Shown here: one piece after another, positions 6,586 through 53,361 of the stretch | Layout: every line of letters begins with the position of its first letter | Numbering within the stretch: the first letter of the stretch is position 1 | Notes under the pieces: model-generated | Seen by the model: the letters and a program-made list of their open reading frames with translations, nothing else | What the model was told of the DNA's origin: nothing | The model's database searches: none | Assembly (NCBI GenBank): GCA_012270585.1 | Contig: JAAXIB010000020.1 | Location: 13,187-77,186 of the forward strand | Length of the DNA: 64,000 nucleotides | Origin: Nitrospirales bacterium | GTDB lineage: Bacteria > Nitrospirota > Nitrospiria > Nitrospirales > UBA8639 | Direction: 5' to 3' | Translations under genes and position numbers: made by a program

Positions 6586-7958
6586 TGCGAGGTCGTGGCG
6601 CTCGTTACCCCGTGGCCCTCACGGCGATCTGGCTGGTGGCAGCGATTGTTGCCGCCGAAGCCCATGCGGAATTCGAGATCGTGGCTCAGGAATTGTCCGG
6701 GCGCGTGAGCCTGGAAGGCCGTGCCTTTCCGGAAACCGGCATTGATCCCACGCATCAGCGCTCGTATACGACAGGCTTTGTGGTGGAGCCCAAACTCTAC
6801 TTGGAAGAGGCCGAGGGGAGCAGTTTCACCCTGGTGCCGTTCTTTCGCTACGACAGCGCGGACTCAGTCCGCACCCACTGGGATCTGCGGGAAGCGTACG
6901 TTCTGCTGTTCGGCGAGCTCGGCGAGGGCGAATGGGAGGTGCGGCTGGGCGTGGACCGGGTGTTCTGGGGTGTCGCCGAATCGCAACACCTGGTCGACAT
7001 CATCAACCAGATCGACTTCCTCGAACATCCCAACGGCGAGGTGAAGTTGGGGCAACCCATGGTTCACGTGACGTGGACCGGCGATTGGGGTGCCTTGGAA
7101 TTCTTCGGGCTGCCGTATCACCGCCCGCGTATCTACCCGGGCCAAGGCGGTCGCCTGCGCTTTGCAGGACTCGTGAACCGCGATCAGGTGGAGTATGAAA
7201 GCGGGGCCGAAGAGTGGCATCCGGATTTCGCGGCCCGTTACAGTCACAGCTTCGGCCCCCTGGATATCGGCCTGAGTGTGTTCAATGGTACAAGCCGGGA
7301 AGCGAGCCTGATTTGTATGCCGCCTGCTTGTAAGCTGACCGGGGTCAGTGATGTCTCCAATGTCTGGATTCCGTACTACACGCAGATCCGCCAGTTTGGG
7401 CTGGATGCGCAACTGACGCTCGACGCCTGGCTGTTCAAGTTTGAGGCGATGCATCGCTCGGGCGAACGCAACCTCCTCGGTCGGGAACAGGAGTTCGTAG
7501 AGGAGTACATGGCTGCCGCGGTAGGGGCAAGTGGATTCGACGATCTAGCCGGCACCCTTCGGGAAGAAGAATACATGGCCGCCGTGGTGGGAGGCGAATA
7601 CACGTTCTATTCCGTCTTTGGTTCTACGGCCGACATCGGCCTGCTGGCCGAATGGAATTATGACGAGCGGGGCCGGCGAGCGCTTCCCAGGCGCCAGCCC
7701 ATGACTCTAGACAACGATTTTTTCCTGGGTGCGCGTTTTGCGTTCAACGACATCCAGAGCACCGAGATCACTGCCGCGTTTTTGACGGACGCGAGCCGTG
7801 AAACCCGCACGTTGGCCGTCGAATTCGACCGGCGGCTCTTCGATCAATGGTCCCTGTACGCGGCGGCGAACATGATTCTCAGCATCGACCCATTGGATCT
7901 TCAATACGTGGGGCGACGCGACGGCTTCTTCGAGTTCCACTTGGAGTACAATTTCTAG
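6582..7958 (+). CDS. putative outer-membrane beta-barrel protein
   Basis: Overlaps the upstream stop by 4 nt. Has a signal peptide (…AAEAHA|EFE), alternating hydrophobic pattern and a C-terminal ...HLEYNF aromatic terminus. Confidence 0.5.
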   Translation: MMRGRGARYPVALTAIWLVAAIVAAEAHAEFEIVAQELSGRVSLEGRAFPETGIDPTHQRSYTTGFVVEPKLYLEEAEGSSFTLVPFFRYDSADSVRTHWDLREAYVLLFGELGEGEWEVRLGVDRVFWGVAESQHLVDIINQIDFLEHPNGEVKLGQPMVHVTWTGDWGALEFFGLPYHRPRIYPGQGGRLRFAGLVNRDQVEYESGAEEWHPDFAARYSHSFGPLDIGLSVFNGTSREASLICMPPACKLTGVSDVSNVWIPYYTQIRQFGLDAQLTLDAWLFKFEAMHRSGERNLLGREQEFVEEYMAAAVGASGFDDLAGTLREEEYMAAVVGGEYTFYSVFGSTADIGLLAEWNYDERGRRALPRRQPMTLDNDFFLGARFAFNDIQSTEITAAFLTDASRETRTLAVEFDRRLFDQWSLYAAANMILSIDPLDLQYVGRRDGFFEFHLEYNF

Positions 7959-8015
7959 CCGGTTCATGAACGGACAACCACGGGGGTTGTCCCTACACAG
8001 ACATTGGCCTTGTAG

Positions 8016-8047
8016 GGGACGGCCCCTGTGCCGTCCCGAATATTTTT
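8016..8047 (+). terminator. rho-independent terminator of the export-like operon
   Basis: GGGACGGC-CCCTGT-GCCGTCCC stem-loop followed by GAATATTTTT. A second hairpin GGACAACC-ACGG-GGGTTGTCC lies just upstream. Confidence 0.6.
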
Positions 8048-8055
8048 CCGCGCTC

Positions 8056-10353
8056 TCATTCTGTTGTGTTTTCCATGCTGCTGAGGGCTTCCGCAGGGGG
8101 CTCCAGCGGTAACAAGACGCGCATCTCGGTGTAGTGTCCCTCTTCGGTGTCGACCTGGATGGAGCCACCGTGACGAACCAGAATGTCTCTGGTCAGGGAC
8201 AGCCCCAGACCAGTGCCCTTCCCCGGTTCCTTGGTCGTCACAAAAGGCTCAAAAATCTTGTGGCGCATGTCCTCCGGGATACCGGTTCCATTGTCCCGGA
8301 TCGAGAACTCCACGTGATCCTTCACCTTCCGGCTGGAGATCGACAGTTCCGGTGCGTAGTCGCCATCGGTCTTTTTCTGTTTTTCGTTCAGCGCCTGAAA
8401 CGCGTTGGTGGCGAGATTGAGGAACACGCGACAGATATCCTGTGGGATGACCACAATCTCTTCGAGGTTCGGGTCCAGATCTTTCTTCATCTCCGCGTTG
8501 AAGGAGTTATCTTCGGCGCGCAGCGCGTGATAGGACAGGTTCACGTACTGTTTCAACAGGGCGTTCAGATTCGTCTTGCGCCACTCCCCTTCTTTGCTGC
8601 GGGAATGTTCCAGCATGCTGCGCACGATGTTGTCGGCTCGCTTACCGTGTTCTTTGATTTTACCGAGGCTCGTCCGCAGTTCTTCCAGAATCGACTTGAT
8701 CTCCTCAAGGTCGAGGTCCTGTTGTTCTTTCATCAGTTCCTCGATCTCATCCGCGAGTTCAATCGAGACGTTGGCAAAATTACTGACGAAGTTGAGAGGA
8801 TTCTTGATTTCGTGTGCCACCCCGGCGGTGAGCTGACCCAAAGACGCGAGTTTCTGCTCGGCAACGACCTGATCCTGGGCCTCCTTCAGATTATTCAGTG
8901 CCTGTTCAAGATTCTCATTTTTGGCGTCCAGCTCTTTGGCCAATTTTTCCACAAGATTCAGACGCTGGACCTCACGGGCGTAACGCCGGAACACCTCCAG
9001 TGCCCTGGTCATGTCGGTGACCTCATCATTCCAGATGAAATACCATATGTTCCGCGTCAAGTAATTGGCAGACCCCTTCATCGGTTTGGCGATATCATAC
9101 CCCTCGACTTGGACGGGGACCTCCAGGTCGCCACTGGCCATCTCGCGCATCGCACTGGCCAAGCCCGTCAGGCGGCGTACCAGGTAGCGCCTCACAAACA
9201 GGGAGCCTAACACAAAAGCGCCTACGGTACCGAAAAGGTTGAGGAGGATCAGAAAAAGGATTCCCGTCTTCACGGCGGCGCGGGAAGCCGTGCTGGACTG
9301 AATGGCCTCCTCGTTGATGTACGCGACCAGATTGTTGACTTCCGACACCAGTGATTCCGAGGTGGTTCGCGCCCTTGCCAAGTCGTCCTGCTCCTGTTCC
9401 AGCCTGAACAGGGCCTCCTGGCGCAGTTTAATGACTCCTTCCTGGCCTTCCCCGATTTCGTCCAGACGCATCAGGTTTTCTTGAAGAAGGTCATTCTGCA
9501 TGGAATCCGGCAGCTTCGCATAGGCGTGTATGAAATTCCGGACGGCACTCTGGAAGCGTTCCTCCAAGGGGGTGAGAAACTGGCGATCAGCCAGAACCAG
9601 GACCTCATCCAACAGCAACACGGCAAGATTGGCGGACTGGTTCACGGTAATCAGATTACGATAGGCGGTCAGTTCGTCTTCCGAAGCCCGCTTATTGGTG
9701 GGGTGAACCTTGTCATCAAACTTCCGTAAGCCTGATACCAGGTAAAAGGCCTGATCATCAATGGCTTGGACCAGCAATCGTTCCACGCGCCTGGTGGTTT
9801 CACCGAGTTCGTCAATGAAGACGTGGAGGGCCCGGTCAATTTCCAGGCGCCGGGCGGAGGATTGCTTGATCCCGTCCAGATGTTCGCCAAGTTCCTCCAG
9901 GTTTGACCTGATCAACCGGGTTTGTTCGCCGAAAGCGGAGCGGGCTTCCAGTTCCAGGATGGTGCTTTCGAGTGAGGTTATTTCCCGAGCTATTTCTTCC
10001 ACCACGGCCGTGTGCTCCTCCTTCGAGGAGGCCGACACCAGACGAAAGGCGCCGTTGACCACGATGGCACTTTTCCGGGCCACGTCCACCGAGCTGATCA
10101 GGTTGGGCATGCTGTATTCTGCCAGCCGGATTTCGTGCTTCAATGTTTCGTTGAAGGTGAAGTAAGCCAGCAACGTGGCACCGCCCATAAGGACAACGGA
10201 ACCAAAGAGCAGGAAATACAGCCTTACGCCGACTCCTATCCGGAAATTTTGCTCGGTTTCCGGCTCTTCAATGGCGACAGGGTTCACCTGCCTCCCGGAT
10301 GCGCTGGATTCGGTCAGGTCTTGGGGGGATTCTGTGGGAGGGGATTCGTTCAT
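8056..10353 (-). CDS. membrane sensor histidine kinase (large periplasmic domain, HAMP, HisKA, HATPase)
   Basis: 765 aa with two TM segments. H-box ...[18 protein letters not shown]..., N/G boxes ...[10 protein letters not shown]..., ...DNGTGIP..., ...GTGLGLSL.... Confidence 0.85.
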
Positions 10354-11507
10354 GGCGCCGACATCTTTTCTACCGACTGGAATCGTCCCCTTTTGTTGAT
10401 GCGGGTCAGGTATACCCGATCCGAACCCTGATTGTCATTCACGTCGTAGCGTAGATGAAATCCGCCCAGATTAATGTCTCCGGCCTGAATCAGGGCCTGG
10501 AGAAAGTCCTCTCTGGTAGGAGCGGGTTCCGCCAGCCGCAGACCTTCTATGGCGATGCGGCCTGCGAGGTAGCCTTCCAACGACACGAAGCTCGGTTTGC
10601 TGTTGCCGTCAATTTCCTTTAATGCCTTCTGGTATCGCGCGACGATCGGCAGGGAGGTATCCCGAGGAAAAGGCACAACCTGCGTCACGTACACGCCGGT
10701 TCCGTCTGACCCCAACGCTTTCGCCAGAGCGGCGCTGCCGATGAAGGAAATGTTGATGAAATACGGATTGAAGTTGAGTCGTCTCGCCCACCGGATCATG
10801 GTCGCTGCGGGCTTGTAGGCACCCACGATGACGACGGCCTCGGCGTTGGCCCGGCGCAAATCCAGCAGGGCGATTTTGACGGCCTCGGTGTTGCGGGTAT
10901 AGTACACCTCTTCAATCAGGCTCAGGCCATGGCGATTGACCGCGCGGCGCAACCCGTTCAGCCCGGCCTGCCCGAAGGAGTCGTTCTGGTAGAAAATGCT
11001 GATCCGGTCTATGCCCAGATCTTCGTGGAGTCGGACCACCATTTCCTCGGTTTCCTGGTAGTAGGAAGCCCGTACGTTCACCACGTTGGGATGCTTCTCT
11101 GCGTCCCGCAGAAATTCGGCGCCCGTGAACGGGGCAATATACGGAACGCCCGCCTCCGTGGCGACGGGTTGGGCCGATTTCGACGTTGGAGTGCCCACGG
11201 CACCGATCAGGGCAAAGACCTTGTGATCCTCGATCAAGGTGCGGGTATTGGCAATCGCGGCTTCCGGTTCGTATCTGTCGTCCAGCGATTTGAGGCGTAG
11301 CTGGTAATCGTGTACGCCACCTTCGCGATTGACCTCGGAAAACGCCGCGAGGAGTCCGAGGCGCATGCCGATGCCCAGTTCGCGGGCCGGGCCGGTGAGT
11401 GCCGCGGACTGACCGAACACAATCGTCTGTTGATCGGACTCCGCGCGGGCCGGTGCCCACGGTGTCGCCACAACCACCAACAGAAGCAGGATCATCCCTA
11501 TCGTCAT
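10350..11507 (-). CDS. periplasmic substrate-binding protein (Leu/Ile/Val-binding, Peripla_BP_6-like)
   Basis: Signal peptide MTIGMILLLLVVVATPWAPARA, then ...IVFGQSAALTGPARELG.... I chose the ATG at 11507 because the longer ORF would overlap the upstream gene. The stop overlaps the kinase start by 4 nt. Confidence 0.75.
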   Translation of the reverse strand: MTIGMILLLLVVVATPWAPARAESDQQTIVFGQSAALTGPARELGIGMRLGLLAAFSEVNREGGVHDYQLRLKSLDDRYEPEAAIANTRTLIEDHKVFALIGAVGTPTSKSAQPVATEAGVPYIAPFTGAEFLRDAEKHPNVVNVRASYYQETEEMVVRLHEDLGIDRISIFYQNDSFGQAGLNGLRRAVNRHGLSLIEEVYYTRNTEAVKIALLDLRRANAEAVVIVGAYKPAATMIRWARRLNFNPYFINISFIGSAALAKALGSDGTGVYVTQVVPFPRDTSLPIVARYQKALKEIDGNSKPSFVSLEGYLAGRIAIEGLRLAEPAPTREDFLQALIQAGDINLGGFHLRYDVNDNQGSDRVYLTRINKRGRFQSVEKMSAP

Positions 11508-11520
11508 AGGCAGAACAGGG

Positions 11521-12696
11521 TTATGAGGGAACCGCTGCCAGAAAACGTACCGCCATGCAGGTGATGTCGTCCGATTGCACGGCGTCTCCGACAAATTCCT
11601 GCACGGCGTCCACGACGTCCGTGATCACCCGTTCAGAACTCGCACCGGCAAGGTCGGCCAGCCTCTCGTCGAGTCGCGACTCCATGAACTCGGCGCTCTT
11701 GCTGTCTTCCGCTTCCGTGATCCCGTCGGTGTACAGGAACAGGGTGTCACCCGGCGCAAGCTGGATCTGGTTGTTGCGATACGTGTGGCCCGGTTGGACC
11801 CCCAGTACGATATTGCCGGTTTTCGGCACCACCTCGACCCGGGAATCGGTTCTCAGCGCTCTGGGCGGATTGTGCCCGGCGTTGGAATAGCTCAACTCGC
11901 CGGTCCGCAGGTCAAGCACCCCGAAAAACAGCGTGATGAAGATGCACGACGGGTTGCTCTCGCAGAGCAGGTCATTGACCATGGTCAGGCAATCGCTCGG
12001 CGTGGTGTAGTCCTTCGATGCGACCGCGCGCAGGAGCGCACGGGTCACGGTCGTGAACAAGGCCGCAGGCACCCCTTTGCCGGACACGTCCGCAATGACC
12101 AGTCCGAGACGTGATTCGTCAATGAAAAAGAAATCGTACAGGTCCCCGCCGACTTCACGGGCCGGGATGATCACCGCCTTGACGTCGTGATGCTCATTGG
12201 CCGGCAACGCCTCCGGCTGAAACGACATCTGGACGTCCCGGGCCATATCCAATTCCTGTTTGAGGGCAACCAGCCGATCACGGGTTTCCAAGGCCGCTTG
12301 CATGGCTTGAATGTGCTTGAGACCTTTTTCGATGGTGGCTTCGAGATCGTTGAAATCAATCGGTTTGGTCAGAAAGTCGAATGCCCCGCGGTTCATGGCG
12401 GTGCGAATGTTCTTCATGTCCCCGTAGGCGGAGACGATCACTGCCTGTATGTCCTGTTCCGCGTCGGCAAGCTGGCTCAGCAGGGTGAGACCATCCATCA
12501 CCGGCATGTTGATATCGGAGAGGACCAGGTAGATCTCAGGGTTTTCCTTGAGTACCTCAATGGCCTCTTTGCCATTGTGGGCAAACAGGAACTTGAGATT
12601 CCCCTCGCGGATCCGGCGGCGGAATTTCTGACGGATCAGTAACTCGAGATCTTCTTCGTCGTCGACGACCAGCACCTGAGTCGGTGATTTTCCCAT
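11521..12696 (-). CDS. response-regulator receiver fused to PP2C/SpoIIE phosphatase (RsbU-like)
   Basis: REC domain (VLVVDDEED...LSDINMPVMDG...K), then PP2C motifs (...GGDLYDFF..., ...ADVSGKG..., ...LYTDGITEA..., ...QSDDIT...). Confidence 0.85.
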   Translation of the reverse strand: MGKSPTQVLVVDDEEDLELLIRQKFRRRIREGNLKFLFAHNGKEAIEVLKENPEIYLVLSDINMPVMDGLTLLSQLADAEQDIQAVIVSAYGDMKNIRTAMNRGAFDFLTKPIDFNDLEATIEKGLKHIQAMQAALETRDRLVALKQELDMARDVQMSFQPEALPANEHHDVKAVIIPAREVGGDLYDFFFIDESRLGLVIADVSGKGVPAALFTTVTRALLRAVASKDYTTPSDCLTMVNDLLCESNPSCIFITLFFGVLDLRTGELSYSNAGHNPPRALRTDSRVEVVPKTGNIVLGVQPGHTYRNNQIQLAPGDTLFLYTDGITEAEDSKSAEFMESRLDERLADLAGASSERVITDVVDAVQEFVGDAVQSDDITCMAVRFLAAVPS

Positions 12697-12764
12697 CTCT
12701 TGAATGTCCGGTCAGTGCGCTCGAGGTGTATGCCTTGATCGACCGTTCATGAACAAACGGTTGT

Positions 12765-13115
12765 TCACAGCGCCCCGAGCGCATCGGCCCGGGTGGCGCG
12801 AATGTCCAGAATCTCATTGAACCCGCTGATTTCGAAAATTTCAGCGATGTGATCGGCAAGAGCGCAGAACAGGGCCTTGCCGTCTTCTTTCTGCGTCAGA
12901 CGAGCAGCGATCAGCAGCGCGCGCAAGCCGGCACTGCTGATATAACTCAGATCCTTAAAATCAAAGATCAGAGTCTTATGCCCGGCATTGATCTGTTCCT
13001 GTACGGCACTCTCCAGAATTCCCACACTGGAACCATCCACTCGCCCGATCACGATAAGGATCGTGGCCTTGTCACTATGCTCGGCTTCCACGGATAGCTT
13101 ATATCGTTCTTCCAT
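12765..13115 (-). CDS. STAS-domain anti-sigma-factor antagonist (RsbV/SpoIIAA-like)
   Basis: 116 aa; ...LIFDFKDLSYISSAGLRALL... contains the conserved phosphorylatable Ser context. Confidence 0.85.
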   Translation of the reverse strand: MEERYKLSVEAEHSDKATILIVIGRVDGSSVGILESAVQEQINAGHKTLIFDFKDLSYISSAGLRALLIAARLTQKEDGKALFCALADHIAEIFEISGFNEILDIRATRADALGAL

Positions 13116-37621: not shown

Positions 37622-37768
37622 TCACGCCACAACCAAATCCGTCTTATGCAACACGATCACATTCGCAAATTCGACTTGTTCGGTCAGCAGATCGGCGACC
37701 GTTCGTGGGCGTCTACCGTGGCCAATTGCGAACGTAAAGGTGTCGATGACGGGGAGCCTTCGTGTCAT
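37622..37768 (-). pseudogene. remnant of a COG0523 (CobW/ZigA-like) GTPase gene
   Basis: 48-codon ORF MTRRLPVIDTFTFAIGHGRRPRTVADLLTEQVEFANVIVLHKTDLVVA. It matches only the ...PV.ETF.F... and ...[16 protein letters not shown]... segments of the intact paralogs. ATGA overlap with the upstream stop. Confidence 0.5.
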
Positions 37769-40203: not shown

Positions 40204-40362
40204 CTACCGCTTTTCTTTATGGAGGGCATGCTTCCGGCAGTACGAACAATATTTTTTCAGTTCGATCCGGTCGGGATCGTTTTTCTTATTTTTGGAGGTC
40301 CAATAGACCGATTTGCCCGGCGTCTCACATCCGGTGCAGGCAATGGCAATCGTGATACGCAT
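40204..40362 (-). CDS. rpmG: ribosomal protein L33 (island copy, four-Cys C+ form)
   Basis: 52 aa, below the track cutoff: [60 protein letters not shown], 21 nt after rpmB. Confidence 0.8.
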
Positions 40363-40383: not shown

Positions 40384-40626
40384 TTAGATGTGTTCACCGG
40401 CCGCCCGCATGTCGGCGACGACGCGGGCCAGCCCCTTTTTATCGATAATTTTCATGCCGTGGGTTGAAACCGACAGGGTAATCCAACGATTCTCTTCCTG
40501 CAGAAAATAGCGCTTCCGATGCAGATTCGGAAAAAACCGCCGCTTGGTTTTGTTATTGGCATGACTCACACGATGGCCGGACATCGGTCGCTTTCCGGTG
40601 ACCTGACAATATCGTCCCATCAACAC
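40384..40626 (-). CDS. rpmB: ribosomal protein L28 (island copy, C- form)
   Basis: ...[38 protein letters not shown]...[17 protein letters not shown]...; single Cys, E. coli-like. GGAGG RBS. Confidence 0.85.
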
Positions 40627-40817: not shown

Positions 40818-42068
40818 CTAGGCATCGGGAGATTCCGGTGACAACCAGTCGGGAAACGGATCGGAAAATGACCTCCACCCCTCGGCCCCCAGGCTCATCT
40901 CGGCATCCGTCAGCAAACAGGCGTCCAATCGCCGACTCAGTGCCGCTTGATCGACATTCTGTCCGATCACGACGAGTTCCTGCTGGCGGTCACCATAGAC
41001 CGGATCCCAAATCGTCTCCAATCGCTTTCGCTCTTCGTCATCCACCTCCCACTGATCACGGGGGAGCGTCGCATACCAGCGTCCTCCACCCTGTAAGACG
41101 CCTGTCCCACCGGCCTGGGACCAGATCCCAACCCAATCGGGACGAGAGGTCAGCCAGATAAATCCTTTTGATCGCAAAACTCCCTTCCAATTTTTCTGAA
41201 CCATTGCCCACAGACGCTCAGGATGAAAGGGCCGCCGGGCCACATAGACGAAACTCCGAATGCCGTATTCATCAGCTTCCGACCGCCATGCCCCCCGCAA
41301 GATCTGCATCCATCCCGCTGCGCGGCTCGCCCGCTCCAAATCAAACCGGTTTGTCCGGAGCACCTCCACCAAGGACACCCGTCCCTGTTGGGCCGGCACG
41401 ATCTGCGCATCCGGATTCAGTACCCGCAGAATGGCGGTCAACTCGGCCAGTTGCGCATCCGACACCGTATCGATTTTGTTGATCACCAGCACGTCCGCAA
41501 ACTCCACCTGGTCAATCAGCAGATCCGTCACCGTCCGTTCATCCTCTTCACCCAGTTCGAGCCCCCGCTCTTTCAGGTCCTCGGACGCCTGATAGTCGGC
41601 CAGAAATGTTCCCGCATCCACCACGGTGACCATCGTATCCAATCGGGCCACCGAGGAGAGCGACCGTCCCATCTCATCCTGAAAGAAAAACGTCTCGGCC
41701 ACGGGCAAGGGCTCGGAAATTCCGGTGGATTCGACCAACAAATAATCGAAGCGTCGGGCTTCAGCCAGCCGGGCCACTTCCTGGAGCAAGTCCTCACGGA
41801 GGGTACAGCAGATGCAGCCGTTACTCATTTCCACCAGCTTTTCTTCGGTCCGGCTCAGGGCCGCCCCACCCTGGGCGATGAGAGCGGCATCCACATTCAC
41901 ACTGCTCATATCGTTGACGATGACCGCCACCCGCAGGCCCTCCCGATTATGCAGAACATGATTCAACAACGTCGTTTTCCCCGCCCCCAGGAACCCGGAC
42001 AGCACGGTCACCGGCAATCGCGCATCACGGACCACAGCCCCATTCATTTCCCTCTCAGCCACATCCAT
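40818..42068 (-). CDS. COG0523 (CobW/ZigA/YeiR-like) metallochaperone GTPase, paralog 1
   Basis: Start set at [10 protein letters not shown]... with a GGAGCAGGAGG RBS. P-loop [12 protein letters not shown], metal motif [10 protein letters not shown], ...[14 protein letters not shown]..., ...VINKID..., CobW_C domain. Confidence 0.85.
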
Positions 42069-42078
42069 CCTCCTGCTC

Positions 42079-43347
42079 CTATTCGGACTCACGTTCATCT
42101 TCCTGCAGATCAATTTCCAAGGCCGCCTGCGCGAAAGGATCCTCAAACCGGCGCCAACACTCCAGACCCAGCTTCGACTCCGCCGCTGTCAAGAGACATG
42201 ATGCCAGCCGTTGAAACAACCGCTCCCGATCCAACCGGTAGCCGATACAAGCCAAGGCCTGTCGACGATCACCAAACTCCAACGACCAATCCTGGCTCAA
42301 CTCTTTGCGAAAGGCTTTATCGTCAGGCCAATCCGCACAGGGAATCGACGCCCACCAATCCCCGATATATTCGAAAAATCGGCCGCCGGCCGTCTGAGAC
42401 CAGAGAAAACACCGATCGGGTTGTGAGGCAATCCAGAAATGACCTTGGCACCGCAGAATTCCCGGCCAATCGGACTCGATCAGTTCCCATAGCCGCTGCG
42501 GGTGGAAGGGGCGCGTGGCTCGAAAGACCCCCATCGTCCAATAGGACGATCGAATCGTCGGCATCGGCGCTCCCTGGATCAGCTTCGCCCAGCCTGGTTG
42601 AGAACTGATCGGCATCGAGGCAGGAGTACGCTCGTTGACAATCTGTCCCACCACATCCAACCCCTCCGCTATCGATAGGATCGTGGCTTCCGGGTTCAAC
42701 GTCTCGAGCAAGGAGCGGAGACGAGTCTGCTTAGCCAATGACAGCCCCTCGGTTTTGGATATCACCAGCACCGTGGCATACTCCACCTGCTCCACCACCA
42801 GTTCCGACACCGTCCGTCCATCGTCCGTCCCACAACTCGCGCCTCGGGTCTGTAAATCGTCTTCAGAATGCAGATCGTTCCATAACGTCCGGCCGTCGAC
42901 GACCGTGACCAGGTGATCAAGCCACGCCTTCGATGCCAAGGGTTCGCTGTTCTCCCAGGCGTCGTTGAACACTTCGGCGACCAAGACCGGCTCCATCAGG
43001 CCCGAGCACTCGACCAGCACCCGATCAAACCGCTGCATGTCGGCAATCGCCGTGATGGCGCTCGCCAAACTGTCGCGCAAGGAACACCCGACACACCGTT
43101 GAATCAACTCGGCCAAGACTTCACCGAGACGGAAGACTTCGATCCCCAGCGATCGACAGAGGTCCGCATCCAATCCTGCGTCGCTGCGGTCATGGACCAG
43201 CACGGCCAACCGACCGGACGACCGGCCGGCGACAACTTTCTGCACCAACGTGCTCTTCCCGGCTCCGACAAAACCACAGACCACGGTGACCGGAAGCCGT
43301 GTGATCTCGGCTGGACGATAGCCTTTGGGATGGATACCGGGTTTCAT
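42079..43347 (-). CDS. COG0523-family GTPase, paralog 2, variant metal motif and L31-like N-terminus
   Basis: Start set at [12 protein letters not shown].... P-loop [20 protein letters not shown] replaces GCICC. ...[11 protein letters not shown]..., ...VISKTE..., CobW_C-like end. Confidence 0.8.
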
Positions 43348-43496: not shown

Positions 43497-43751
43497 TCAG
43501 GATTCGGACTGCCGACCGAACGGTAACAGCGCCATGTGTCGCGCTCGCTTGATCGCTCGTGCAATCTCCCGCTGCCGATGTTGACTATTGCCCGTCATTC
43601 GTCGAGGCAGGATGCGCCCGTTTTCCGTTATGAACCTCCGCAGCCACTCCGCATTTTTCCAATCCACCGGTGTCGTATCGTCGATCACGCGACGGCGTCG
43701 TCCTTCAAGCATGCTCGTTTCTCCATATACGATGAATTGCGCTTGTTTCAT
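43497..43751 (-). CDS. rpsR: ribosomal protein S18 (island copy, Cys-free)
   Basis: ...[50 protein letters not shown].... Start uncertain (M at 43751 or 43712). Confidence 0.75.
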
Positions 43752-43853
43752 GTGGCCCGGACTGAAGCCCTCCCCGATGGCGCTCACGGATACACGTGAG
43801 GTTGCCACACACGGACACGCGTTCAGCCGGACGATCAGAACAATGTGACGAGA

Positions 43854-44162
43854 TCAAACCGCGGCGGGAGGACCCCGCGAATAAGGGACGGACACGAGCA
43901 GGCTCGAAAACTCTTGCACTGAGGGAATCGGCAGGATAGCCGACGGCAACAGCACGGACGGCAGGACAAGGCCAGTTTCAGACAACGATGAACTGGCAGC
44001 CCACTCCAGCCAGGCGTGAACATCGGCATCAGAGTGGTCGGGATCGCCGGCTTGTACGGCGGAATAGTGATCGATCAGCAGGTAGGGCAGGGGCAGAGCG
44101 ACCAGCCCATACAGCATCGCAACGGCGGCGATGAACATCACTCGAATCAACCTGGCCTGCAT
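43854..44162 (-). CDS. hypothetical single-pass membrane protein
   Basis: ORF with one TM (...VMFIAAVAMLYGLVALPLPYLLI...) followed by a His/Asp-containing segment. Weak coding evidence. Confidence 0.25.
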   Translation of the reverse strand: MQARLIRVMFIAAVAMLYGLVALPLPYLLIDHYSAVQAGDPDHSDADVHAWLEWAASSSLSETGLVLPSVLLPSAILPIPSVQEFSSLLVSVPYSRGPPAAV

Positions 44163-44250
44163 CCTTCCTGCCACTCCGATACACTCATCCGTAGCGCGCC
44201 TCGCATGTGAGAGCGCTCTCGTCGAACCCTTGTGAGCCTGATCCAATCCA

Positions 44251-44341: not shown

Positions 44342-44647
44342 CTACCAGCTCGACTTTCTCACTCCGGGAATACCCCCTCGTAATGCCAACAAACGAAAAT
44401 CGATGCGGGACATGCCGAATCGTCTCAGGAACCCACGGGTCCGGCCTGAAATAAGACATCGGTTTCTCACTCGGCTTGGGCTGGCATTGCGGGGCAGCGC
44501 CTGCAGCCCCCGCTGCGCCTCCATCCGCTCTTCCAAAGAAGACCCAGGATTTCTGATAACTTCCTTTAAAATGGTTCGTTGTTGGGCGTACTGCTTCACC
44601 ACTTCTTTTCGTTTTTCATTTTTAATGATGCAACTTTTTTTGGCCAT
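44342..44647 (-). CDS. rpsN: ribosomal protein S14 (island copy, long 101-aa C- form)
   Basis: [24 protein letters not shown]...[43 protein letters not shown]. Start set at ATG 44647. Confidence 0.85.
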
Positions 44648-44816: not shown

Positions 44817-44833
44817 TTGAAAATGATTTGAAA
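44817..44833. promoter_or_regulatory. TTGAAAATGATTTGAAA, Zur-box-like imperfect palindrome upstream of rpsN
   Basis: From memory it matches 12 of 15 positions of the actinobacterial-type Zur consensus TGAAAATGATTTTCA. It lies about 175 nt upstream of the S14 start in a lower-GC spacer. Confidence 0.3.
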
Positions 44834-46928: not shown

Positions 46929-47243
46929 TCAGTGCTTGCCATGTGAATGCCCTCCATGCGACCGGCAATCATGTCCACAGCCTTGTATGCCCAACCCGCC
47001 ACCGTAAATGTTTTTGAGCGTGGGAGGAGGAGCGGTCGAGCCCGGTGGAGGATCCGATGACGCCCGGCTTTGGGCCATAACATCAGCCCCTGCCGAAAAC
47101 ACTGACGGGGTCTTCTCCAACGGTGCCCCGCATTCGCGACAGGCCGTCACCGGGGCATCATGCATGTTCTGCCAAAAGGCAAACCGCTTAGGACAAAACA
47201 GCGATTTCAAACAATATTCGGCTTGATATTCATAGATGGGCAT
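46929..47243 (-). CDS. FmdB-type zinc-ribbon-like small protein with degenerate first CxxC and a His-rich tail
   Basis: MPIYEYQAEYC...CPKRF...ACRECGAPLEK.... The C-terminus is ...GCGHDCRSHGGHSHGKH. Start set at ATG 47243. Confidence 0.5.
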   Translation of the reverse strand: MPIYEYQAEYCLKSLFCPKRFAFWQNMHDAPVTACRECGAPLEKTPSVFSAGADVMAQSRASSDPPPGSTAPPPTLKNIYGGGLGIQGCGHDCRSHGGHSHGKH

Positions 47244-47577
47244 ACACTTCCCTTTCTTTTTGCCCAATCAGCACCAAGGCATGATCCGGTTCTTCCCGGA
47301 GTTGAATGGGGCCGACCCACCGCCAGGCGGGTCGTGAAAATTGCACCTCATGCAAAGCATTGGAGTCAGCAAATCGACAAAACCCTTTCACCCGTTCGAT
47401 CCCATCGGGCAGGTGTTCACACCATTCAAGAAACCGTGCACGATTCAGGGGACGCGGCAACGGAATCGTCGCCACCATCGGATGACAAGACGGATAAGAA
47501 AAAACCGTCCCCTGCCTTGCTTTATGCCTCATACTCGCCAAGCAGGGTTGACGGAACGGGCTGTTTGACTGCAACAT
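47230..47577 (-). CDS. stand-alone CobW_C-like domain protein (possible COG0523 remnant)
   Basis: ...FSYPSCHPMVATIPLPRPLNRARFLEWCEHLPDGIERVKGFCRF...HEVQFSR...ALVLIGQ... resembles only the C-terminal domain of COG0523 proteins. Start uncertain (47577 or 47532). Confidence 0.45.
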   Translation of the reverse strand: MLQSNSPFRQPCLASMRHKARQGTVFSYPSCHPMVATIPLPRPLNRARFLEWCEHLPDGIERVKGFCRFADSNALHEVQFSRPAWRWVGPIQLREEPDHALVLIGQKEREVYAHL

Positions 47578-47585
47578 TGCCCACC

Positions 47586-48887
47586 TTATTCGTCTTTCGT
47601 TCTTTGAAACACCGTTACCCCGACGACCATTGTCCGGACCGCCGCACCGCGAAGTCGCCACCCCGCAAACGGGCTGTTCCGCCCCTTCGACCGAAACCGT
47701 TCCGGATCAACCGTCCATTCCATCCTTGGATCGATCAACACCACATCAGCCTGTGCCCCGGCGGCCAACGTCCCGCACGATAGACCCAACAAACGGGCCG
47801 GGGCTGACGTCAGTTTTTCTATCATGGATTCCAGGGACAACAGGCTCTCTTCTACCAGCCGAAGAGAAAGCCCTAAGGCCGTTTCAAGTCCGACTATTCC
47901 AAAAGGAGCCTTGGACAATCCCCACTGCTTCTCATAGGCAGCATGCGGAGCATGATCGGTGGCTATGGCATCAATGGTGCCATCCTGCAACCCGTCGCGG
48001 ACCGCCTGGATATCCGCATTTCGACGGAGGGGAGGATTCATTTTCGCCAATGCGCCTCGGTCCCGCACCGCCTCTTCGGTCAGCATGAAATGATGGGGGC
48101 AAGCTTCCGCAGTCACCCGAATTCCGGCGACCTTGGCCGTCCGGACGGCCTCCACCGCATTCGCCGTACTGATATGCGCGATATGCAGATGGCATTCCGT
48201 TGCCTTGGACAACGCGATATCCCGTTTCACCATCTTGGATTCCGCTTCAGAAGGGATGCCTCGGACTCCCAAGAGACGGGAAAGGGGGCCCTCAGCCATA
48301 CATCCGCACCCGGCCAATGACAGATCTTCGCAATGATCGATCACCGGCAGATCCAAGGCCCGAGCCTCTAACATCGCCTGTCGCATGACGGCATTTTTCA
48401 TCACGGGACGGCCATCATCCGAGACAGCCACACATCCGGCCCCACGTAAGCCCCGAAGGTCTGCCGGCTCTTTCCCTTGTAATCCTTTGGTGATGGCCCC
48501 GATTGGATGTACGCGAACCAACCCGGTAGCATGCACACGGTCGTGGATGGTCTGGGTCACAGCAGGGGAATCATTAACGGGATTAGTATTGGGCATGCAA
48601 CAGACGGTCGTAAACCCACCGGCAGCGGCTGCAGCGGTCCCAGTCTCAATGGTTTCTTTGTACTCGAACCCCGGTTCCCGGAGATGGACGTGCAGATCCA
48701 CCAAACCTGGCGCCACAATCAACCCGTCGGCCTTGAAGTGGTCGGCATGTGAGGGAAGAGCCGTCTGTGGAGGCGTCACCTCGGCGATACGACCCTGCCT
48801 GATCCAGACATCCCCCCTACCGTTCCATCGTCCAGGGTCGATAACCCAACCGCTTACGATGATGAATAAATCGGCAGGATGGTTCAG
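47586..48887 (-). CDS. pyrC: dihydroorotase (island copy); start codon unresolved
   Basis: ...DLHVHLREPGFEYKETIETGTAAAAAGGFTTVCCMPNTNP..., ...ATDHAPH.... The track ORF extends into the ZIP gene. No ATG/GTG/TTG lies between the ZIP stop and the conserved N-terminus; CTG at 48887 after GGGGGA is the best candidate. Confidence 0.8.
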   Translation of the reverse strand: MNHPADLFIIVSGWVIDPGRWNGRGDVWIRQGRIAEVTPPQTALPSHADHFKADGLIVAPGLVDLHVHLREPGFEYKETIETGTAAAAAGGFTTVCCMPNTNPVNDSPAVTQTIHDRVHATGLVRVHPIGAITKGLQGKEPADLRGLRGAGCVAVSDDGRPVMKNAVMRQAMLEARALDLPVIDHCEDLSLAGCGCMAEGPLSRLLGVRGIPSEAESKMVKRDIALSKATECHLHIAHISTANAVEAVRTAKVAGIRVTAEACPHHFMLTEEAVRDRGALAKMNPPLRRNADIQAVRDGLQDGTIDAIATDHAPHAAYEKQWGLSKAPFGIVGLETALGLSLRLVEESLLSLESMIEKLTSAPARLLGLSCGTLAAGAQADVVLIDPRMEWTVDPERFRSKGRNSPFAGWRLRGAAVRTMVVGVTVFQRTKDE

Positions 48888-51338: not shown

Positions 51339-52390
51339 TTCTCTCCCACGCCTTCCACGGCAAAGAGCGCCACCGTTCCGTCATCGGCGCCCGCCGCCAG
51401 ACAGACATCAATCGGACTCCAGGCCGCACAGGACAATCCTCTCGACACACGCAGTTCCTGACTCACCATCGGCTTCTTCTTCCCTGGCTCCCACAAGCAG
51501 AGCACCCCGTCCTCCCCTACCGTAGCCACCACCCGCTGACGAGGGTGACAGGCAATTGCTTGAATCCACCCCAGATGGCCGCTCAAAAGCCGACCATTGG
51601 ATCCTTCGAAGTTTTGGGCCGACCACGTCACCAAATCAGGACCGGCTGCTGTCCATAAAGATTCTCCATAGGGATCGAAGACCACATGCCCGACCTTGCA
51701 GGGATATCCGGCCATATGCCAATTCCGCTTGGTCGAGACACTCCATAAATGGACCGACCCGTCCAAATTTCCCGCTGCCAGATATTGCCCGGTCGCACTG
51801 ATTGATAACGACAGGAGGGCTCCATCGTAGGGAAACGTATTCACGGGGGAGTCCATCCCGACCTGCCATAAGGTGACTCCTCCGAAACAGGAGGAAAATA
51901 TTTGGCCCGGATATCCTTTTCGCCAACAAAGATCGGACACCGAACTCTTATGATCAGAGGTCTCCCATTCCACAGAACACCCGCCCGACTCCGACCACTT
52001 CAGGATCTGCAGGGTTTTTCCCGCGGTCATCGCCAATCGTTCGCCGCCGGGCTCCCACGCCAGATGTTCCACCCAGCCTTTTCCATCTCCAACCGGAACC
52101 ACGGCACGCTCTTCTCCGGAATCGACGTCCCACACACGCCCCACTCCGTCTTCCCCGGCGGTCGCGAGAATTTTTCCTCCGGGATGCCATGCCTCCGCCA
52201 GCACCGCACCCTGATGTTGCGAGATACGGGAGACGCCCTGCTGGGACGATACATGCCACACCGCGACTTGGCCGCTCGCATCTGCGGCCACCAGCCGGCT
52301 GCCGTCCGGGGAGAACCTCACGGCATGGATGTATTCATCCAATTGAAACGTTCCGATCGGCCGCAATCGAACTCCGGCCCGAGGCCGCAC
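51335..52390 (-). CDS. WD40-repeat (beta-propeller) protein
   Basis: Repeated ...SPDGSRLVAADASGQVAVW..., ...GGKILATAGEDGVGRVWD..., ...GQYLAAGNLDGSVHLW..., ...VVATVGEDGVLCLW..., ...LAAGADDGTVALF.... The GTG start at 52390 shares one base with the upstream TAG. Confidence 0.7.
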   Translation of the reverse strand: MRPRAGVRLRPIGTFQLDEYIHAVRFSPDGSRLVAADASGQVAVWHVSSQQGVSRISQHQGAVLAEAWHPGGKILATAGEDGVGRVWDVDSGEERAVVPVGDGKGWVEHLAWEPGGERLAMTAGKTLQILKWSESGGCSVEWETSDHKSSVSDLCWRKGYPGQIFSSCFGGVTLWQVGMDSPVNTFPYDGALLSLSISATGQYLAAGNLDGSVHLWSVSTKRNWHMAGYPCKVGHVVFDPYGESLWTAAGPDLVTWSAQNFEGSNGRLLSGHLGWIQAIACHPRQRVVATVGEDGVLCLWEPGKKKPMVSQELRVSRGLSCAAWSPIDVCLAAGADDGTVALFAVEGVGEK

Positions 52391-53361
52391 TAAACGAGGC
52401 ACGATCGAAATCCTTCGGTCAGTCGGACGCGATCGAGGTTGCGGCCGATGAACACCATTTGGTTCCCTCTCGGCTCCGTGGCCCGCCACGGCCGATCCGG
52501 GCGACCGTCGAACAACATATGCACCCCCTGAAACACGAAGCGCTCATCTTGTCCCTTCACATTCAAAATCCCTTTCATGCGAAAAATATCGGTGCCCATC
52601 CCCGACAAGACCTCCCGCAGCCAATCATTGACTTTGGCCTCGTCCACCTGTCCGGTCTCGGCAATCGACACGGAGTAGACCGACGGATCATGCTCATGCG
52701 CTTCCTCGCCTAAAAAGTTCGGATCGATTTCCAGTTTCCGGCTCAGGTCAAACGCCCCCACATTCAACAACCGTTCGATTTCCAACCGGGCATCACGGGT
52801 CCGGTAGATTTGGGCCATGGCATTGATGGCCCGAACACGGCTCTCCAGCCGCTCCACTTTCCCTTCGTCCACCAGATCGATCTTGTTCAGAAGAATGACA
52901 TCCGCAAAGGCAATTTGTTCCTTGGCCTCTGGACTGGTGTCCAGGTGTTCCCAGATATGCTTGGCATCCACCACCGTCACAATGGCATCCAACATCAACC
53001 GGCGCTTCATGTCATCATCGACGAAAAAGGTCTGTGCGACGGGTGCCGGATCGGCCAACCCCGTGGTCTCGATAACCATATAGTCGAACCGTTCTTTTCG
53101 TTTAAGCAAATTGGAAATAATCCGGATCAGGTCTCCGCGAACGGTACAACAGATGCACCCATTGTTCATTTCAAAGATTTCTTCGTCCGCTCCTACCACC
53201 AGTTGATTATCAATTCCGACTTCACCGAATTCATTCACAATCACCGCCACCCGTTTCCCATGCTCGGTGGTCAGAATACGATTCAACAAGGTTGTTTTGC
53301 CCGCACCAAGAAATCCCGTCAATACAGTGACCGGGACTGGAGCTTGCTCTTCGACTTTCAT
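52390..53361 (-). CDS. COG0523 (CobW/ZigA/YjiA-like) metallochaperone GTPase, paralog 3
   Basis: 323 aa. [25 protein letters not shown], ...[13 protein letters not shown]..., ...LLNKIDLV..., CobW_C domain. AAGGGGG RBS. Confidence 0.9.

Follow-up and report, generated by a model that had tools for sequence, protein, structure and literature searches.

A CxxC-type relative of ZigA encoded among alternative ribosomal-protein genes in Nitrospirales

Introduction

A stretch of 64,000 nucleotides from a Nitrospirales bacterium (assembly GCA_012270585.1, contig JAAXIB010000020.1, positions 13,187 to 77,186; the whole stretch is hereafter called the window) carries two full-length COG0523 genes in tandem, both on the minus strand, of which one (paralog 1) encodes a canonical ZigA and the other (paralog 2) a ZigA-like protein with CxxC at the place of the CxCC motif. 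Here we describe paralog 2 and its orthologs, collectively called type A, as a conserved, selected and structurally intact member of an old ZigA-derived lineage that is restricted to Nitrospirales, and we consider what role this protein may play next to a canonical ZigA and among genes for alternative ribosomal proteins.

The CxCC motif has been described as family-defining and invariant in COG0523 (PMC13001444, PMC2770081), and Zn is ligated by all three Cys residues in ZigA and MigC (PMC12208494, PMC11672702). Both Arg and Lys of another motif, RxKG, are required for the GTPase activity of these two proteins, with the Lys mutation abolishing the activity, and a Glu residue in their linker is required for or gates the Zn-stimulated GTPase activity (PMC13001444). 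Degenerate ZigA paralogs resembling Mrf (MPY recruitment factor; MSMEG_6069 / Rv0106; NF047431), itself a ZigA-family paralog as is type A, are already known as a kind, and type A is a variant thereof. Rv0106 was described as a COG0523-like, Zur-regulated protein with CXSC and without the GTPase motifs (Haas et al., PMC2770081). The C- ribosomal operon of Mycobacterium smegmatis includes the gene for Mrf, which binds C- ribosomes, and recruitment of Mpy requires Mrf; its zinc ligands are C64xxC67 and flanking His residues including H36, and zinc binding leads to Clp-dependent degradation of the protein (Li et al., PMC6094098, PMC7431043). In the literature, we found no relevant link between COG0523 variants and Nitrospira.

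Results and Discussion

COG0523 genes in the window

Four full-length COG0523 genes are encoded in the genome, three of which lie in the window; all three matched both Pfam cobW and CobW_C.

42079-43347, minus strand: paralog 2, the type A gene (CxxC-type ZigA-like COG0523), 422 amino acids, with an AAGGAG Shine-Dalgarno site before its ATG
40818-42068, minus strand: paralog 1, canonical ZigA, 416 amino acids, downstream of paralog 2
52390-53361, minus strand: paralog 3, a short YjiA/YeiR-like COG0523 protein of 323 amino acids with GCICC, NKID and RMKG

An earlier note on this sequence had placed the first two genes back to back with a gap of about 10 nucleotides, and the junction indeed reads TAG-gagcaggagg-ATG, a spacer of 10 nucleotides. 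The same note had the third gene heading another operon, which agrees with our finding that paralog 3 is the first gene of a separate WD40-DUF3386-MoaB-ZIP-PyrC unit.

Paralog 1 is assigned to canonical ZigA by its score against the NCBIfam ZigA equivalog (620.3 bits; cut-off, 600), by its grouping with canonical ZigA in both trees described below, and by its motifs, namely GCICC (CICC codons at 41805-41816), INKID, RSKG and a SEADEY linker. Paralog 2 is 38% identical to paralog 1 and matched PF02492 and PF07683 with E-values of 5.7e-33 and 3.2e-17, respectively; its best-scoring NCBIfam model was also ZigA (NF038288), to which it gave 346.4 bits, a score below the equivalog cut-off of 600.

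Motifs and predicted fold of paralog 2

Motif homology was examined in three alignments: one made with MAFFT, a HMMER alignment to YjiA, and an alignment of 123 sequences. In all three, CVGC of paralog 2 (residues 85-88, codons 43084-43095) falls on the CICC that paralogs 1 and 3 share with YjiA, so that in paralog 2 Gly has taken the place of the middle Cys; the earlier contrast of GCICC in paralogs 1 and 3 with CVGC in paralog 2 is thus one between homologous columns. The other residues of interest are encoded as follows.

43276-43278, minus strand: C24
43252-43275, minus strand: intact Walker A, GFVGAGKS
43192-43194, minus strand: H52
43000-43011, minus strand: ECSG (residues 113-116) in Walker B, canonically ESTG
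42748-42759, minus strand: SKTE (residues 197-200) at the guanine-specificity motif G4, canonically NKxD
42442-42453, minus strand: RCQG (residues 299-302) in the C-terminal domain, canonically RxKG

By its domains and by Walker A (GxxGxGK[ST]) and Walker B (ExxG), paralog 2 fits COG0523. None of the family motifs CxCC, G4 ([NST]KxD) and RxKG was matched in this protein, which has CVGC, SKTE and RCQG instead; furthermore, the PETEEY linker of ZigA with its Zn-gating Glu was absent at the linker of paralog 2, and VHDRS replaces VNDMS in the switch I region.

An AlphaFold2 model of paralog 2 was obtained with a predicted local distance difference test score (pLDDT) of 85.3 and a predicted template modelling score (pTM) of 0.85, with C24, H52 and C114 predicted at the strand ends of the P-loop, switch I and Walker B. 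When the model was used for a Foldseek search, the top match was YjiA (E = 7e-16), which is to our knowledge the only COG0523 protein with a solved fold; besides YjiA, the search returned only the expected HypB, MeaB and signal recognition particle (SRP) GTPases. Like type A, E. coli YjiA (PDB 1NIJ, 4IXM) has a Cys residue after the Walker B Glu (ECTG), but it is 17% identical to paralog 2, possesses CxCC, has a shorter C-terminal domain, and is not encoded in a ribosomal-protein context. We considered Cys114 as a relocated third thiolate of the zinc site; this idea is weakened because YjiA carries ECTG beside an intact CxCC.

Conservation and selection of type A

In a search of 5.8 billion proteins, approximately 65 orthologs of paralog 2 were found at 50-92% identity, all in Nitrospirales, after which the identity falls to approximately 40%. 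The named relatives of paralog 2 in the database are from Nitrospira, and type A genes are currently registered as “GTP-binding protein,” “G3E family GTPase” or “metal chaperone YciC.” Among 401 sampled Nitrospirota genomes, 12 possessed type A, and all of the 12 belong to one order.

The motif reads C-[VMAT]-[GSD]-C in 65 of the 65 type A orthologs, every one of which has lost the middle Cys, and ECSG is present in 63. His52, Cys24 and Cys300, the last of which is the x of RxKG, are conserved at 98%, 95% and 94%, respectively, and ZigA has Ser or Asn at the positions of Cys24, His52, Cys114 and Cys300. Walker A is retained across the orthologs, most of which have no Asp in G4 (SKTE, NRSE, TRSA, AQTA and others), the PETEEY linker is gone, and RxKG is found as RCKG in 50/65 and as RCRG or RCQG in the genus of the window. 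In canonical ZigA of the same alignment, CICC, [NST]KxD and RSKG/RAKG are invariant (43/43) with PETEEY also kept, and CxCC is preserved in 133 of 150 representatives of ZigA-like clusters. In type A, the Cys3 zinc site of the family is cut to Cys85-x-x-Cys88, constraint on both G4 and the Zn-gating PETEEY linker is lost, and, in the genus of the window, the catalytic Lys of RxKG is exchanged for Gln or Arg. Compared with the ZigA/ZagA zinc metallochaperone GTPases (NF038288), type A has the same two-domain architecture and length and presumably the same context of zinc limitation, but it is without CxCC, the G4 Asp and the linker Glu and is equipped with Cys24, His52, Cys114 and Cys300.

Because CxCC, G4 and the Lys of RxKG are all altered, and the ratio of nonsynonymous to synonymous substitution rates (dN/dS) of paralog 2 within the genus, 0.45-0.58, is above those of the neighboring genes, type A could be taken as a decaying pseudogene or a non-functional relic of duplication. 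We regard this as hardly credible: the gene has an open frame with a Shine-Dalgarno site, its product has a confidently predicted fold, some 65 orthologs are intact down to 50% identity with residues invariant to the clade, and type A is retained where the adjacent ZigA decays (see below). For a dN/dS of 0.45, the bootstrap interval is 0.32-0.63 and never reaches 1, and this result, together with the conservation of the orthologs, rejects the pseudogene reading of paralog 2. The earlier note had named disrupted G motifs as a sign of a pseudogene; indeed, G4 is disrupted, but G1 and G3 are intact, and paralog 2 is not a pseudogene. Of the sub-functionalization that the note had proposed, a functional specialization is likely, since paralog 2 has diverged and yet is selectively maintained.

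Phylogeny of type A

Two trees were constructed: a 59-row maximum-likelihood tree with all alignment columns and a 72-row tree from which the motif columns were removed. In the 59-row tree, type A forms a clade with a support of 100/100, which is joined at 100/99 with other CxxC proteins of Nitrospirota (type B, P0124 and P0125), and the ZigA partners of Nitrospira, including paralog 1, are placed among canonical ZigA. Without the motif columns, the CxxC clade (100/96), canonical ZigA (96/92) and Mrf (100/100) all persist.

The type B paralogs (with CTRC, CSGC or CVGC) share with type A the CxxC clade and also the operon slot described below, but their NKxD (G4) and RSKG are intact, C24, H52 and C300 are absent, and none of them is found in the window. 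One type B protein (locus L037 in genome G042, 8690-10150; L and G numbers are our labels for loci and genomes), the sole COG0523 protein of its ribosomal operon, has only the last Cys of the motif left (DPCSFRRRL) and retains Walker A, NKCD and RSKG despite the loss of Cys residues.

From these residue patterns, we infer that Cys87 was lost and Cys114 gained at the base of the CxxC clade, and that C24, H52 and C300 would have been gained on the stem of type A, where G4 and the linker would also have decayed. The loss of Cys in type A and type B and that in Mrf may reflect either shared descent or convergence.

The note had explained the COG0523 genes and remnants by repeated duplication and decay within 16 kb. 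A recent tandem duplication giving paralogs 1 and 2 is rejected by the approximately unbiased (AU) test, in which type A was forced together with the Nitrospira ZigA partners (p = 0.002); the tandem pair, with its identity of 38%, is therefore not the product of a recent local duplication. Paralog 3 is of the YjiA/YeiR-like type, and one of the two remnants derives from yet another, small type of COG0523 (see below). Repeated duplication is thus not supported, but decay is, by the two remnants and by ZigA genes that are lost, reduced to a stub or split in G049, G082 and L035, respectively.

Alternative ribosomal-protein operon

In the window, the tandem genes are enclosed by genes for ribosomal-protein paralogs, and the order on the minus strand is rpsN2, rpsR2, a remnant of an S14 gene, paralog 2, paralog 1, rpmB2 and rpmG.

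44342-44647, minus strand: rpsN2, long-form S14 paralog of 101 amino acids (Pfam Ribosomal_S14), the first gene of the unit
43854-44246, minus strand: unassigned open reading frame (ORF) of 130 amino acids between rpsN2 and rpsR2
43497-43808 as the listed ORF, minus strand: rpsR2, Cys-free S18 paralog (Pfam Ribosomal_S18), with a likely start near 43712 that gives approximately 71 amino acids
43386-43448, minus strand: 3'-terminal remnant of an S14 gene (PF00253, E = 1.3e-5), just upstream of paralog 2 and between it and rpsR2
40384-40626, minus strand: rpmB2, L28 paralog with one Cys (Pfam Ribosomal_L28), downstream of ZigA
40204-40362, minus strand: rpmG paralog, L33 with four Cys (Pfam Ribosomal_L33)

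S14 and S18 of the window are extra paralogs, because a second S14 (short form) and a second S18, the latter on another contig, are encoded elsewhere in the genome. S14-like matches at the position of the remnant were also found in L006 and L011; since, in the order's other family, an intact S14 gene occupies this position, the S14 gene has apparently moved upstream with its old copy eroded. As a separate observation, L33 of this island is a zinc-ribbon form (CTGC...CSYC, four Cys); S14, S18 and L28 encoded with it are poor in Cys.

Across related genomes, type A directly follows the gene for an S14, S18 or L31 paralog at every locus examined, and the run of COG0523 genes is closed by L28 and L33 paralogs where the operon is not rearranged. 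The type A gene is fixed in an alternative ribosomal-protein operon, S14-S18(-L31)-[type A]-[ZigA]-L28-L33, in which one to four COG0523 genes fill the slot.

Type A and ZigA: the window, L003, L004, L009-L012
Type A and type B: L001
Type A, ZigA and type B: L034
Type A, ZigA, ZigA2 and type B: L040, L041
Type A alone: L042
P0124 (CxGC-type) alone: L036
Type B alone: L037
ZigA alone: L039

In L040 (G603, 7668-12890) and L041 (G572, 7372-12594), four COG0523 genes stand in tandem between the L31 and L28 paralogs, encoding type A, ZigA, a second ZigA of 399 amino acids and a CTRC-type protein. This four-gene tandem is probably near the ancestral array. The pattern of COG0523 genes here is that of an old array, with as many as four distinct paralogs, thinned by differential loss and not that of recent copying.

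Type A is retained independently of ZigA. In two genomes of the same genus, ZigA is deleted (L006, G049) or reduced to a stub of 40 residues (L007, G082) with type A intact in both, ZigA is broken into four ORFs beside an intact type A in L035, and type A is present without ZigA in L042 and L001. These loci bear on another explanation, in which type A is a catalytically impaired partner that forms a complex with the adjacent ZigA and regulates its GTPase activity or zinc loading. Such a partnership would fit the spacer of only 10 nucleotides, the adjacency of type A and ZigA at most loci, and the finding that isolated C-terminal domains can activate the GTPases of ZigA and MigC in trans (PMC13001444). 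COG0523 proteins are, however, thought to act as monomers (PMC11672702), and given also the persistence of type A at the five loci above, this explanation appears improbable to us.

Remnants and a candidate regulatory site

The earlier note had recognized two COG0523 remnants in the window, and both were recovered here.

37622-37768, minus strand: ZigA-like gene remnant covering the G4 region with HKTD (NCBIfam ZigA, E = 3.6e-8)
47230-47661, minus strand: CobW_C-only ORF retaining RVKG (Pfam CobW_C, E = 2.2e-10)

In the first, a stretch of 25 residues is 64% identical to residues 178-202 of ZigA, and a ZigA-like remnant stands likewise beside hemB in three sister genomes (L007, L011 and L012). 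The second is what remains of a small COG0523 type (approximately 320 amino acids), the best full-length relative being a COG0523 protein of 324 amino acids in L008. Although isolated C-terminal domains can activate GTPases in trans, as noted above, this ORF is probably a relic because sister genomes have it either in a degraded form or not at all.

A candidate Zur-type box, TGAAAATGATTTGAA, was noticed at 44818-44832 (no strand assigned), approximately 170 nucleotides upstream of rpsN2, and has two mismatches to what we take to be the actinobacterial-type Zur consensus. The 15-mer is identical in three genomes of the same genus (L006, L011 and L012) and is not found in the order's other family; across the window, Zur-like boxes were not more numerous than expected by chance, and this box is treated as a lead only. 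Zinc regulation of the type A operon is suggested by the gene content.

Apart from these loci, a 27-nucleotide sequence of IS6110 was noticed in 13 unrelated assemblies (Bacillus, Streptomyces, Arthrobacter and others; L013-L025), where it lies on contigs that are short and of low coverage. Those short contigs most likely represent laboratory or sequencing contamination.

Comparison with Mrf and possible function of type A

For comparison, we used five Mrf equivalogs sampled from the class of Streptomyces. They have GC[VAM][ST]C and RxRG, a His residue aligned with H52 and a degenerate G4, their Walker A is absent, and their genes are located between L28-L33-S14 and L31 genes. The likeness to type A is thus seen at several positions: both proteins have a small residue where CxCC has its middle Cys (C-x-S/T-C in Mrf and C-x-G/S-C in type A); His52 shares its alignment column with the zinc ligand H36 of Mrf, which is the His of VRH/VEH at the end of strand 2; G4 is degenerate in both; the Lys of RxKG is replaced (RxRG in Mrf and RCQG/RCRG in the genus of the window); and both are encoded among genes for S14/S18/L28/L33/L31 paralogs. 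The two proteins differ, on the other hand, in that Mrf has lost Walker A and Walker B, both of which are kept in type A, and in that type A shares one of the four flanking His residues of Mrf. Type A furthermore constitutes its own clade of Nitrospirota proteins, scores under the cut-off of the Mrf model, and is not an ortholog of Mrf.

By analogy with mycobacterial Mrf, to which type A comes closest, we tentatively favor, at slightly less than even confidence, the reading that type A is a zinc-responsive, ribosome-linked derivative of ZigA, namely an Mrf-like factor. Type A would be co-expressed with the alternative ribosomal proteins under zinc limitation and would act, as Mrf does, as a nucleotide-binding adaptor responsive to zinc status on the remodeled ribosome or on its proteins. 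It would then not be a GTP-gated chaperone for zinc delivery, a role that would belong to the neighboring canonical ZigA. Zinc bound at Cys85/Cys88/His52, possibly together with the new Cys residues, might signal zinc repletion, upon which type A would be switched off or destabilized. The S30AE/HPF family of proteins is nearly universal, and one member is encoded in this genome.

Several points weigh against this assignment. Paralog 2 gave 168.9 bits with the NCBIfam Mrf model (NF047431), far from the cut-off of 375, and paralog 1, the canonical ZigA, scored higher (225.8 bits). Mrf was sister to the CxxC clade at 96/89 in the 59-row tree, but this grouping was lost without the motif columns, and an alternative placement of Mrf was not rejected by the AU test (p = 0.29); we do not, therefore, claim Mrf as the sister of type A. 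The dN/dS of type A exceeds those of its neighbors ZigA, S14, PyrC and HemB (0.04-0.42). The operon position alone, moreover, cannot separate a ribosome factor from a chaperone, because canonical ZigA shares the operon, and an enzymatic chaperone cycle is possible for type A because Walker A, Walker B and mostly RCKG, which Mrf has lost, are kept.

The main competing explanation, in line with the idea of the earlier note, is that type A is a sub-functionalized metallochaperone in which delivery of a metal is driven by a nucleoside triphosphate and the remodeled site (Cys2 plus His/Cys) serves another metal, affinity or client, maybe with ATP or another nucleotide and not GTP. In its favor, Walker A and Walker B are conserved together with the Arg of RxKG, most of the orthologs having RCKG; the new conserved Cys and His residues are predicted at the strand ends named above; and the Zn-sparing enzyme paralogs of the island (HisI, HemB and PyrC) could be the clients. 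The earlier note had named PyrC, HemB, HisI and Map as candidate clients. We nonetheless consider such a chaperone rather unlikely, given that G4 is free of constraint, that the Zn-gating linker is missing, that the Lys essential to the GTPases of ZigA and MigC is Gln or Arg in the genus of the window, that those two proteins employ all three Cys residues for Zn, and that the conserved neighbors of type A are ribosomal proteins and not enzymes.

The Mrf-like reading can be extended further, with appreciably more doubt. Type A might be a Gram-negative counterpart of Mrf that has evolved independently and stands at an intermediate stage, with the GTP-gated Cys3 zinc site of ZigA rebuilt as a Cys/His cluster (C24, H52, C85, C88, C114 and, contributed by the C-terminal domain, C300) that lines both the domain interface and the pocket for the nucleotide. 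Domain closure would then depend on zinc and not on GTP hydrolysis, and type A would link the zinc status of the nitrite-oxidizing Nitrospirales to the assembly or hibernation of their zinc-free ribosomes. We view this proposal as speculative and, taken as a whole, unlikely.

Conclusion

Type A is a natural exception to the “invariant” CxCC rule of COG0523 that still keeps the P-loop, and it is locked into an alternative ribosomal-protein operon of a phylum far from Actinobacteria. Recent work has raised the open idea, prompted by Mrf, that proteins of the ZigA type may act on the ribosome. With features intermediate between those of ZigA and Mrf, type A is directly comparable with the canonical ZigA encoded 10 nucleotides downstream, and the two can be used to ask what makes a protein a zinc chaperone and what makes it a ribosome factor that senses zinc.

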